From: Clostridia bacterium
GTDB taxonomy: Bacteria > Bacillota > Clostridia > UBA1212 > UBA1255
Length of the DNA stretch: 64,000 nt
Reading direction: 5' to 3'
Assembly (NCBI GenBank): GCA_045546695.1
Contig: JAZQDE010000015.1
Location: forward strand, 1,549-65,548
Positions 17,529-19,037 of this stretch are shown here, piece after piece. The notes below the pieces were generated by a model. That model did not search any database. It was not told the DNA's origin and saw only the letters and a list, made by a program, of their open reading frames with translations. The translations under genes and the position numbers were made by a program. Numbering within the stretch: position 1 is the stretch's first letter; each line of letters starts with the position of its first letter.

Positions 17529-19037
17529 ATGAAAAAGATTTTAGCATTTTTAAAGAAAATTTGTCCTTCCAAGCGTAAACTCGTACAGCTTTATTTTGCA
17601 CTGCTTTTCAACGCAAATATTAAAGGTTTTGTAAATGGCAGTATTTATAATAATTCCACAAAAACCTCTACAAAGAACTTCTGTATTCCCGGTCTTAACT
17701 GTTACTCCTGCCCCGGCGCTACGGGGGCATGTCCTCTGGGCTCCCTTCAGGACTCATACAACGCAGGCAGAAGTACTATTTTTTATGTTCTCGGTATTCT
17801 TCTTCTGTTTGGAGTGATGTTCGGCAGAATGATTTGCTCATGGATGTGCCCGTTCGGTTTTGTTCAGGAGCTTACGTATAAAGTGAAAACAAAAAAGGTT
17901 AAAAAGAGTCGTTTTACAAGGATTCTTTCATATACGAAGTATGTTTTCCTCGTTGTTTTCGTCGTTATTATTCCGATTTGTTATGCATTCAAGGACGTTG
18001 CTTTCCCTGCTTTTTGTAAGTTCATTTGTCCGGCAGGTACATTAGAAGGTGCGATGGGACTTCTTGCCAACAAAGTCAACGACAGTTATTTTTCAATGTT
18101 GGGTCCCCTGTTTACATGGAAATTCCTTTTAATGGTATCAATTATCGTTGGCTCGATATTTATTTACAGACTCTTTTGCCGTTTTATTTGTCCGCTTGGT
18201 GCGTTGTACGGTCTTTTCAACAGATTCTCAATTTTTGGTCTTAAGCTTGATGATGCCAAATGTACAAAGTGTAATTTGTGTGTAAATAAATGTAAGATGG
18301 ATGTTTATAGCGTCGGCGATCATGAATGTATTTTGTGCGGTGAATGTATCGACGTTTGTCCGACAAAAGCCATTTCCTGGAAAGGCCCGAAGATTTTCAT
18401 CAAAGCAAATGATATTCCTGAAAAAGATGATGTGCCGGCTGCTCCAGAGTGCAATAAAAAGCGTGAAAAGTTAAGACTTATTACAAGAATTGGTACACTC
18501 GTTATTATGCTTGCAGTTTTATTTGTTGCGATTGCTCACTACTGGATTGAAGCTGACAAAGCAGAAAAGGTTGTTTATGAAACCGGCAGCGAAGTCGGTA
18601 TGATCTGCCCCGGTTACGATCTTGAGATTGTCACAAAAGACGGCCCGACAGGCACTACAATCAATCCTCCGGAAACCGGAAAAATCACGATTATCAATTT
18701 CTGGTATACGATGTGCACTTCATGCGTTGCAGAGCTTCCATATTTTGAGAGAATTGCAAACGAGTATGAAAACGTAGATGTTATTGCTGTACATTCTGAG
18801 CTTACCTGGTCTTTTGAGGAAGCTGACTTTATAGCAAAGAATTATCCTGATTCCAAAATTATTTTCGTACATGACTATGCTGAAAATTCCGTATCGGATA
18901 TATATTATAAAACACTTGGCGGCAAGGGTGCTTATCCGCAGACTGTTATTCTTGATGAAAATGGTGTAATCGTCAGGATTATAGTTGGCTCAACAACTTA
19001 TGATGAATTAAAAGATATTGTCGATGGTATAAAATAA
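17529..19037 (+). CDS. NapH/CcoG-like polyferredoxin membrane protein (3 CxxxCP motifs, 2 [4Fe-4S] motifs) fused to a C-terminal TlpA-like thioredoxin domain
   Basis: CSWMCPFG, CKFICPAG and CRFICPLG within TM regions. CTKCNLCVNKC plus CILCGECIDVCP ferredoxin motifs. An extra TM. Then a thioredoxin fold with NFWYTMCTSC (CxxC) ... YPQTVILDENG. ATG at 17529 with a GGGGTG RBS. The ORF track starts at 17505. Confidence 0.7.
   Translation: MKKILAFLKKICPSKRKLVQLYFALLFNANIKGFVNGSIYNNSTKTSTKNFCIPGLNCYSCPGATGACPLGSLQDSYNAGRSTIFYVLGILLLFGVMFGRMICSWMCPFGFVQELTYKVKTKKVKKSRFTRILSYTKYVFLVVFVVIIPICYAFKDVAFPAFCKFICPAGTLEGAMGLLANKVNDSYFSMLGPLFTWKFLLMVSIIVGSIFIYRLFCRFICPLGALYGLFNRFSIFGLKLDDAKCTKCNLCVNKCKMDVYSVGDHECILCGECIDVCPTKAISWKGPKIFIKANDIPEKDDVPAAPECNKKREKLRLITRIGTLVIMLAVLFVAIAHYWIEADKAEKVVYETGSEVGMICPGYDLEIVTKDGPTGTTINPPETGKITIINFWYTMCTSCVAELPYFERIANEYENVDVIAVHSELTWSFEEADFIAKNYPDSKIIFVHDYAENSVSDIYYKTLGGKGAYPQTVILDENGVIVRIIVGSTTYDELKDIVDGIK

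Follow-up and report, generated by a model that had tools for sequence, protein, structure and literature searches.

The window analyzed here is a 64,000-nucleotide stretch of contig JAZQDE010000015.1 from a Clostridia bacterium, and the system in question is a pair of genes on its forward strand. The second gene of the pair, referred to as the target, encodes a 502-residue protein in which a NapH-like polyferredoxin membrane core is joined to a thioredoxin (Trx) domain predicted to lie outside the membrane. The first gene encodes a small membrane protein of the CD1871A family, referred to as the partner. In the list of the two genes and the predicted parts of the target, residues are numbered from the methionine encoded at 17529 and TM stands for transmembrane helix.

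17089..17523, forward strand: partner subunit of the CD1871A family, 144 residues, three predicted TM helices, with a tail ...TKAINICTECIGLG-COOH predicted to be outside
17529..19037, forward strand: target gene, 502 residues, with a NapH-like polyferredoxin membrane core, TM5 and a TlpA/ResA-like Trx domain, predicted to be extracytoplasmic
17580..17633, forward strand: TM1, residues 18-35, weakly hydrophobic by hydropathy, AlphaFold helices 15-28 and 31-36, preceded by an N-terminus rich in lysine and arginine (K/R)
17682..17735, forward strand: cysteine cluster of outward loop 1, C52-x5-C58-x2-C61P-x6-C68P (FCIPGLNCYSCPGATGACP), a gap in Escherichia coli NapH
17778..17852, forward strand: TM2 (residues 84-102), then CX3CP motif 1, C103SWMC107PFG, at the cytoplasmic face, common to NapH
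17943..17999, forward strand: TM3, residues 139-157, preceded by the K/R-rich cytoplasmic loop 2
18015..18032, forward strand: CX3CP motif 2, C163KFIC167PAG, in outward loop 3, AlphaFold short helices 161-165 and 168-180
18081..18194, forward strand: TM4 (AlphaFold helix 185-211, hydropathy peak 199-217) and CX3CP motif 3, common to NapH
18240..18383, forward strand: predicted cytoplasmic 2x[4Fe-4S] domain, C245, C248, C251, C255 and C267, C270, C273, C277, from Pfam Fer4 and Fer4_7 and the NapH alignment
18444..18551, forward strand: TM5 (AlphaFold helix 306-341, hydrophobic core 317-335), predicted to lead the chain outside again, not present in NapH or in stand-alone cores
18576..19034, forward strand: TlpA/ResA-type Trx domain, residues ~350-502, with the CxxC C396-T-S-C399 at nucleotides 18714-18725 and P470 in the cis-Pro loop

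An earlier note on this DNA, made from the letters alone, had placed the gene at 17529-19037, and that span stands. The same frame is also open from 17505 (open reading frame, ORF, 17505/17529-19037, forward strand), but homologs begin at the position equivalent to 17529, so the upstream start is less likely, and the ATG at 17529 is preceded by a ribosome-binding site, GGGGTGA. The N-terminal cysteine-rich segment that the note had written as CxxxxxCxxCP is C52-x5-C58-x2-C61-P, with C68-P in addition. Its extra TM helix is the hydrophobic helix 317-335, and its thioredoxin domain with NFWYTMCTSC was found with C396 and C399 in place and a Redoxin match above the Pfam cut-off. Two of its descriptions hold in part. 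The three CX3CP(F/A/L)G motifs are all present, the last in order being C217RFIC221PLG at the cytoplasmic face, but to call them intramembrane was an inference only, because the third CX3CP, counted beside the two common to NapH, falls in a predicted outward loop, as does the N-terminal cysteine cluster. Both ferredoxin motifs are likewise present, but only the second (C267-C277) ends in CP as the note had it, a lysine following the first (C245-C255).

Pfam places the membrane core of the target in the NapH-like superfamily by matches to Fer4_5 (PF12801) in two stretches, at 65.2 bits against a cut-off of 22. Fer4 matches at 37 bits against 21, with a Fer4 or dicluster domain spanning residues 242-287, and Redoxin (38.6 bits against 26.6) and AhpC-TSA (29.1 against 26) match at residues 383-490. 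The target also shows the structural pattern of NapH, in which four TM helices with two CX3CP motifs are followed by a 2x[4Fe-4S] motif pair on the C-terminal side. Its NCBIfam scores are nevertheless far under the cut-offs for NapH/MauN (TIGR02163, 77.3 bits against 213; NF007013, 58.8 against 234) and for CcoG/FixG/RdxA (TIGR02745, 26.4 against 316.7). Therefore, the NapH/CcoG-type assignment of the earlier note can be kept for the NapH-type core and the Fer4_5 superfamily, but the target is an ortholog of neither protein. The Trx domain scores below the cut-offs for ResA (50 bits against 170), StoA (39.7 against 210), TlpA (25.5 against 230) and DsbE (23 against 123), and it has the features of the TlpA-type fold: a Trx fold with an N-terminal hairpin and central insert, the CxxC and the cis-Pro loop. 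Its best structural matches are extracytoplasmic thiol-disulfide oxidoreductases (TDORs), with SdbA among the best and FetE and Sco among the neighbors. Assignment as a peroxiredoxin proper (AhpC/TSA) was rejected, given that the match is a weak 29 bits, that the CxxC occupies the Trx position and that peroxiredoxins rank lower structurally. By its sequence, then, the target falls outside the named equivalog families and can be placed in the Fer4_5 superfamily and in the TlpA-like class of Trx folds.

A search of 5.8 billion proteins with the target gave at least 7,935 matching protein clusters, and Fer4_5, Fer4 and Redoxin occur together in all of the 120 best. The source names of these homologs are '4Fe-4S binding protein' or 'redoxin family protein' only. 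The earlier note had suggested looking for the same fusion in other genomes; when one genome per species was scanned, it was found in at least 598, nearly all with a Clostridia label, and the ORF is continuous in each of the 80 loci kept for analysis. Nearly all of these 80 come from uncultured gut Clostridia, with labels such as Faecousia, Oscillospiraceae and Christensenellaceae, among others. Twenty motif cysteines (10 in the membrane core, 8 in the ferredoxin domain and 2 in the Trx domain) are invariant in all 80 species-level homologs, which are 41-59% identical to the target. C360 is present in 54 of them, and C12, C151 and C308 are not conserved. Since all 20 cysteines are kept while C12, C151 and C308 vary, the motif set is more than chance. 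The family-typical Trx active site is WCTPC; in the target, NFWYTMC396TSC399, no tryptophan directly precedes the CxxC.

Two tandem, near-identical C-terminal Trx domains are common among the homologs (for example P0003, P0007, P0059 and P0063), and this second domain explains the homologs of 640-800 residues. The possibility that the longer proteins are fusions of partner and core was ruled out, as they are tandem duplications of the Trx domain. In one homolog, P0032, a block of extra TM helices, about 150 residues long, separates the ferredoxin domain from the Trx domains.

Topology can be predicted from several directions. Hydropathy of the target gives four strong TM segments and a weak one, TM1. 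Positive-inside statistics, averaged over 79 homologs, give 5.8 K/R per 16 residues at the N-terminus and 7.2 K/R in loop 2, with loops 1 and 3 poor in K/R. The 15 residues before TM1 hold 5.4 K/R as compared to 1.75 after it, the values around TM5 are 4.85 before and 0.81 after, and the net charge of the C-terminal domain is about -17. E. coli NapH (b2204) aligns with 23% identity (E 4e-12) across TM1-TM4 and the ferredoxin domain, residues 69-277, and has C103/C107, C217/C221 and the eight ferredoxin cysteines in common with the target. CX3CP motif 2 is part of a stretch of about 18 inserted residues with no NapH counterpart. For NapH itself, Brondijk et al. 2004 reportedly found four TM helices, with the N-terminus and the C-terminus both cytoplasmic. 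One open-access paper instead describes the NapH clusters as being in a 'periplasmic domain' (PMC3475470), and the topology given here does not lean on that of NapH.

AlphaFold with a shallow alignment gave a weak membrane core, with predicted local distance difference test (pLDDT) values of 50-70. A second run (AlphaFold2, AF2) used a deeper alignment of 137 sequences to which stand-alone cores had been added, and reached a mean pLDDT of 83 and a predicted template modeling score (pTM) of 0.70, with long helices at residues 15-36, 81-98, 136-153, 185-211 and 306-341. The target is thus predicted, from sequence and model, to have its N-terminus inside, five TM helices, the ferredoxin domain inside and the Trx domain outside. 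Because the four strong TM helices agree, the side assigned to the Trx domain and the loop cysteines holds whether or not TM1 spans the membrane. The earlier note had put the Trx domain outside the membrane on the condition that the FeS clusters are cytoplasmic, and charge distribution, NapH alignment and AF2 model agree with it at the level of prediction.

The partner gene was not part of the earlier note, nor was the unfused operon described below. The stop codon of the partner, at 17521-17523, is 5 nucleotides before the ATG of the target, and the two genes are translationally coupled. Residues 108-144 of the partner match positions 2-38 of the 38 in the profile NF040920, at 43.8 bits against a cut-off of 32. 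A partner homolog is directly upstream on the same strand in 77 of the 80 related loci, and among the 75 partners compared the tail is nearly invariant, GG..DVLxKA(I/V)xIC(T)EC(I/V)GLG-COOH, with C137, C140, G142 and G144 conserved in 100%. Partner length varies from 56 to 401 residues, mostly about 250. Given that the N-termini of the partners are K/R-rich and that the TM helices, counted crudely from hydropathy, are odd in number in 67 of the 75, the tail is predicted to be outside, where the Trx domain and the six loop cysteines are also predicted to lie.

The partner in the window is short, with 144 residues and 3 TM helices rather than the usual ~250 residues and 5 TM helices, and is without a central segment of about 110 residues. 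This short form is shared only by the close relatives P0121-P0124 and P0135. A homolog search with the 144-residue protein gave 28 close matches, none carrying a name. No functional report on CD1871A or CD1871 was found in the open-access literature, where CD1871 appears as an ATP-binding cassette (ABC) permease in strain R20291 and in the 'conjugative transposon' row of a table (PMC12772354).

The relation between the parts becomes clearer where they are not fused. A search with the core only, against 1.84 billion cluster representatives, gave 7,375 relatives, 368 of them at E <= 1e-30. The closest ~50 representatives are Trx fusions, and under about 50% identity most are stand-alone cores of 270-310 residues, which keep the loop-1 cluster, the three CX3CP motifs and both ferredoxin motifs. 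In three such cases (from Lachnospiraceae, Eubacterium and a metagenome) the core is the last gene of an operon, after a Redoxin/AhpC-TSA protein of 171-200 residues and a protein of 45-49 residues. The translation of the unfused Trx gene is a lipoprotein with a lipobox and WCGPC, and the mini-protein, of 45-60 residues overall, consists of a lysine-rich N-terminus, one TM helix and a tail ...KAIxICLECxGxG. In locus L084, the genes for Trx, mini-protein and core are at 4281-4859, 4871-5008 and 5001-5834. Eighty metagenome loci with stand-alone cores were then fetched, 68 of which have enough upstream sequence; several are near-duplicates, but many distinct types are included. The tail protein is directly upstream of the core in 67 of these 68 evaluable loci, its tail being invariant in all 67, and a WCxxC protein is upstream of the tail protein in at least 57, with a signal peptide in the examples read. 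This is a Rosetta-stone relation, in that the same parts occur fused or as adjacent genes, and it connects Trx, tail protein and core in function. Given that the unfused Trx is secreted or a lipoprotein, it also provides independent support for a Trx domain outside the cell.

The earlier note had named two outcomes that would speak against its proposal, a Trx domain in the cytoplasm and separate genes elsewhere with no conserved linkage. Neither was seen: the Trx domain is predicted to be outside, with signal peptides or lipoboxes on the unfused Trx proteins, and Trx, tail protein and core, where they are separate genes, are tightly linked in one operon. An artefact, in which the fusion is misassembled or the Trx domain is actually cytoplasmic, could draw on the weak hydrophobicity of TM1, and no other support for it was found. 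With the ORF unbroken in 80 of 80 independent genomes, the architecture present in the 120 best of at least 7,935 matches, the sides given by the four strong TM helices regardless of TM1, and export signals on the unfused Trx proteins, such an explanation is extremely improbable.

Several further observations concern the stand-alone cores. It was considered whether the outward cysteines are specific to the Trx fusion, and this was ruled out, since stand-alone cores of about 280 residues have the same set. In P0230 the core and ferredoxin domain are followed by a TM helix and an Ig-like domain, a layout like that of CcoG, with no Trx. In P0208, P0214, P0225, P0232 and P0247 the ferredoxin domain is followed by about 150-200 further residues, which form a multi-TM extension and match nothing in Pfam. 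These variants suggest a core subfamily with modular output domains. In a Eubacterium metagenome-assembled genome (L085; 1461-2938 and 4218-5846) the module is about 1.3 kb from a Tn916-type Xis/integrase pair, and the family namesake, CD1871/CD18710 of Clostridioides difficile 630, has a locus number listed under 'conjugative transposon' (table in PMC12772354), so the three-gene module may sometimes travel on mobile elements. A human-gut contig (L119:3391-3972) has the C-terminal part of a Trx and the CXXC tail in one 193-residue ORF, which is either a real fusion or a sequencing frameshift.

The comparative genomics points to a two-subunit membrane machine, encoded by the two genes, that would move reducing equivalents to a Trx on the outer face without DsbD/CcdA, a reading to which we give a probability of roughly 0.6. 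The earlier note had proposed an iron-sulfur (FeS)-based, non-DsbD route to an outside Trx; that route is well supported by the comparisons above, with its carrier, donor and clients being inferred. No DsbD_2/CcdA match (PF02683) was obtained in Pfam scans of the target and the window ORFs scanned. Target and partner would probably represent a very widespread surface-reduction route of gut Clostridia. In such a machine, a low-potential cytoplasmic donor, most likely reduced ferredoxin, would load the ferredoxin domain, and electrons would cross the membrane via the cysteine motifs. These motifs might be additional metal or FeS centers, or they might pass the electrons on as dithiol/disulfide pairs, in a relay that the FeS clusters prime. 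The eight outer-face cysteines, six from the core and two from the partner tail, would then reduce the CxxC of the Trx domain, which in turn would reduce disulfides in envelope clients.

The same parts could also be run in the opposite direction, with the outward Trx domain oxidizing envelope thiols as SdbA or DsbA do. The core, like DsbB or VKOR, would then carry electrons inward, to the FeS clusters and to an acceptor in the cytoplasm. Oxidases with a TlpA fold exist, SdbA is among the best structural matches, the CTSC of the target is atypical and has no preceding tryptophan, and neighboring genes encode very large secreted proteins that possibly need disulfides. The family consensus WCTPC and the unfused WCGPC, however, are by general knowledge motifs of reducing thioredoxins; on the same footing, transfer from thiols (about -200 mV) to a ferredoxin-type [4Fe-4S] cluster is normally uphill, and these are strict anaerobes without obvious high-potential acceptors. 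Because of the motifs and the thermodynamics the reductive direction is favored, and the oxidative one appears unlikely.

Electrons might instead come from the membrane. NapH is described as a menaquinol-oxidizing module (PMC5928378; PMC3475470), and the four-helix core of the target is homologous to it, so that the protein could be a NapH-type quinol dehydrogenase with the ferredoxin domain as an accessory. NapH/MauN and the target are alike in the four-TM core, the CX3CP after TM2 and TM4, the C-terminal 2x[4Fe-4S] domain and Fer4_5, but NapH has neither the cysteine cluster of loop 1 nor the CX3CP of loop 3, it lacks TM5 and a Trx domain, and the target is accompanied by a CD1871A-family tail protein with no NapG/NapA context. 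Neither nap nor mau genes were found among the scanned window ORFs or in the related loci inspected, and specifically no NapG- or NapA-like partner is encoded by the window ORFs scanned. Together with the NapH/MauN score of 77 bits against 213, and with the general expectation that menaquinol (about -75 mV) cannot reduce Trx-type disulfides unless energy is put in, this makes a quinol dehydrogenase very unlikely.

Comparison with CcoG/FixG/RdxA raises metal handling. These proteins are like the target in having a NapH-like core, two [4Fe-4S] clusters, an extra TM helix and a C-terminal domain outside (PMC7558416). If the target worked in the manner of CcoG, or of FetE and Sco, the core would reduce or bind Cu or Fe and the Trx fold would be a metallochaperone or a metal-site reductase. 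CcoG, which shares this core, reduces Cu(II) and has two Cu sites (PMC7558416), the CP-rich motifs look like thiolate sites for metals, and FetE and Sco are among the structural neighbors of the Trx domain. CcoG differs, however, in its outward Ig-like domain, its Cu(II) substrate and the linkage of its gene to cbb3 oxidase genes. The window ORFs scanned include no cco genes, the C-terminal domain of the target is Trx-fold rather than Ig-like and has the classic CxxC and cis-Pro of thiol-disulfide oxidoreductases, the CcoG model scores 26 bits against 317, and the loci inspected include no linked gene for a cbb3 oxidase, a copper-ATPase, P19/FTR1 or other metal uptake. A role in metal handling is thus quite unlikely.

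The genes on either side of the pair provide candidates for the clients of the proposed reductase.

1586-16965, reverse strand: Opp-type oligopeptide ABC transporter with an unusually large binding protein of 858 residues, a 440-residue ORF and a 2,409-residue protease
19155-19598, 19604-22549, 22553-23845 and 23863-26682, reverse strand: block of four lipoproteins, convergent with the target
19604..22549, reverse strand: 981-residue lipoprotein with a ResA-like Trx (FWYIQCDPC) and Ig-like domains, candidate client or partner with a weaker link
23863..26682, reverse strand: 939-residue lipoprotein, Ig-like with a ResA-like Trx (FWYDGCSAC), candidate client or partner with a weaker link

The 939- and 981-residue lipoproteins both consist of an Ig-like/CarboxypepD_reg-like domain, a Trx domain and a C-terminal region of about 650 residues, part of which recurs in the 430-residue lipoprotein of the same block. 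This region, taken as the C-terminal 640 residues of the 939-residue protein, has no Pfam or PDB relative. The 2,409-residue protein is a cell-envelope S8 protease with PA, fn3_5, seven BspA-type LRR_5 stretches and a C-terminal TM anchor, and the 440-residue ORF has no Pfam match. Neighbors were sought within 8-10 kb, and the counts refer to the 36 related loci whose flanks extend for 8 kb or more in either direction. A homolog of the 939- or 981-residue Trx lipoprotein is nearby in 22 of the 36, including 13 of the 20 with less than 50% identity. The protease gene is divergent to the operon of partner and target, and the recurrence of this pairing in 17 of the 36 loci suggests that disulfide reduction at the surface and proteolysis outside the cell are connected. 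Speculatively, the clients at this locus might be the two large Trx lipoproteins, and perhaps also the protein substrates of the S8 protease and of Opp peptide uptake.

Several points weigh against the proposed reductase as a whole or in its parts. The Trx lipoproteins and the protease are often, but not always, encoded nearby, and no electron-donor gene is linked to the operon in the loci inspected. The MCTSC site of the target departs from the family-typical WCTPC, so its redox properties could differ. The confidence of the AF2 model is lowest at the loop-1 cysteine cluster, residues 41-57, and no paper on this system or on the CD1871A family was found in the open-access literature. As for the membrane carrier, the CX3CP motifs of characterized relatives are not known to bind FeS clusters: NosR contains only about 8 Fe, which fits two [4Fe-4S] clusters, and its authors favor redox-active disulfides for these motifs (PMC5928378). 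CcoG is credited with two [4Fe-4S] clusters and two Cu sites (review, PMC7558416). Because of the iron content of NosR and the metal counts of CcoG, a dithiol relay primed by FeS clusters, like that of ferredoxin:thioredoxin reductase (FTR), is preferred, with additional FeS clusters as a possible intramembrane carrier.

The boldest form of the proposal, which we put forward as a tentative and rather doubtful one, is a membrane-spanning ferredoxin:thioredoxin reductase. In this form the six outward cysteines and the CxEC tail would build an FTR-like FeS/disulfide site, or else a second FeS cluster, on the outer face, with the CX3CP motifs as its wiring to the [4Fe-4S] pair in the cytoplasm. 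Low-potential ferredoxin would thereby power extracellular disulfide reduction directly, replacing CcdA/DsbD in much of the gut Clostridia and serving protein foraging, at this locus via the Trx lipoproteins, the S8 protease and Opp.

To our knowledge, envelope Trx-fold proteins are kept reduced only via DsbD/CcdA/ScsB, which are fed by cytoplasmic thioredoxin. DsbD/CcdA, acting with TlpA, ResA, StoA or Etrx, would have the same end point as the system described here, a reduced CxxC protein of TlpA/ResA fold outside, and both rely on a membrane protein with conserved Cys-Pro motifs between cytoplasm and envelope. They differ in input, which is cytoplasmic thioredoxin for DsbD/CcdA and an FeS ferredoxin domain for the target, and in the extra small CXXC subunit of the latter. 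FTR and FeS disulfide reductases of the HdrB type offer, as an analogy from general knowledge, the same proposed chemistry of one-electron FeS carriers acting on a Trx-fold disulfide. The comparison is mechanistic only: FTR is soluble and has no sequence homology to the target, for which the step would span the membrane.

The closest precedent for NapH-like modules serving outward redox domains is flavin-based. NapH, NosR and RdhC have a common module of 4 TM helices and 2 CX3CP motifs (PMC5928378), and NapH-like membrane modules have been proposed to pass electrons to extracytosolic flavin mononucleotide (FMN) domains (Meheust et al. 2021, PMC8238504). Flavinylated systems such as NosR and PceC/RdhC are like the target in connecting a NapH-like module to an outward redox domain, and in modular usage across many bacteria. 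In these systems, however, the output is an ApbE-flavinylated FMN-binding domain at the N-terminal loop, as opposed to a C-terminal or separate CxxC Trx and a CXXC tail protein, and the loci inspected showed neither an FMN_bind nor an ApbE gene. Trx partners are mentioned in that study only for DsbD systems (PMC8238504), and no open-access paper was found in which a polyferredoxin or NapH-like protein is connected to proteins of the TlpA/ResA type. Judged by sequence comparison, the FeS-linked extracytoplasmic Trx system would be new with respect to the described NapH-like modules, and widespread.

The remaining genes of the window are housekeeping genes (LepA, HemN-like, SpoIIP, AspRS, DnaE, PFK and others). 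Among the housekeeping and sporulation genes is one for a 1,422-residue protein at 30708-34976 (reverse strand), with BcrAD_BadFG ATPase stretches and DUF2229, of the CoA enzyme activase type. Two large ORFs with no Pfam match, of 1,607 and 612 residues, are at 36947-43623 (reverse strand), where the G+C fraction is lowest, ~0.356 as compared to ~0.40.

If the proposed reductase exists, it would be a second and mechanistically different supply line for envelope Trx proteins, driven by FeS clusters and probably by ferredoxin. It is not rare, given that the fused form is present in at least 598 species-level genomes and that the unfused one is no less common in Lachnospiraceae, Eubacterium and human-gut metagenomes. 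If true, two very large protein groups, whose present annotation is only '4Fe-4S binding protein' and 'CD1871A family CXXC motif-containing protein', would gain a function, and there would be a first functional clue to the CX3CP motifs of the NapH/NosR/RdhC/CcoG superfamily. The compact module of two or three genes would also be well suited to heterologous reconstitution. For the anaerobes themselves, the low-potential ferredoxin pool would be tied to redox chemistry at the cell surface, with roles there that would include repair after oxidative stress, sporulation-type TDOR functions and the reduction of disulfide-rich dietary or host proteins before proteolysis.

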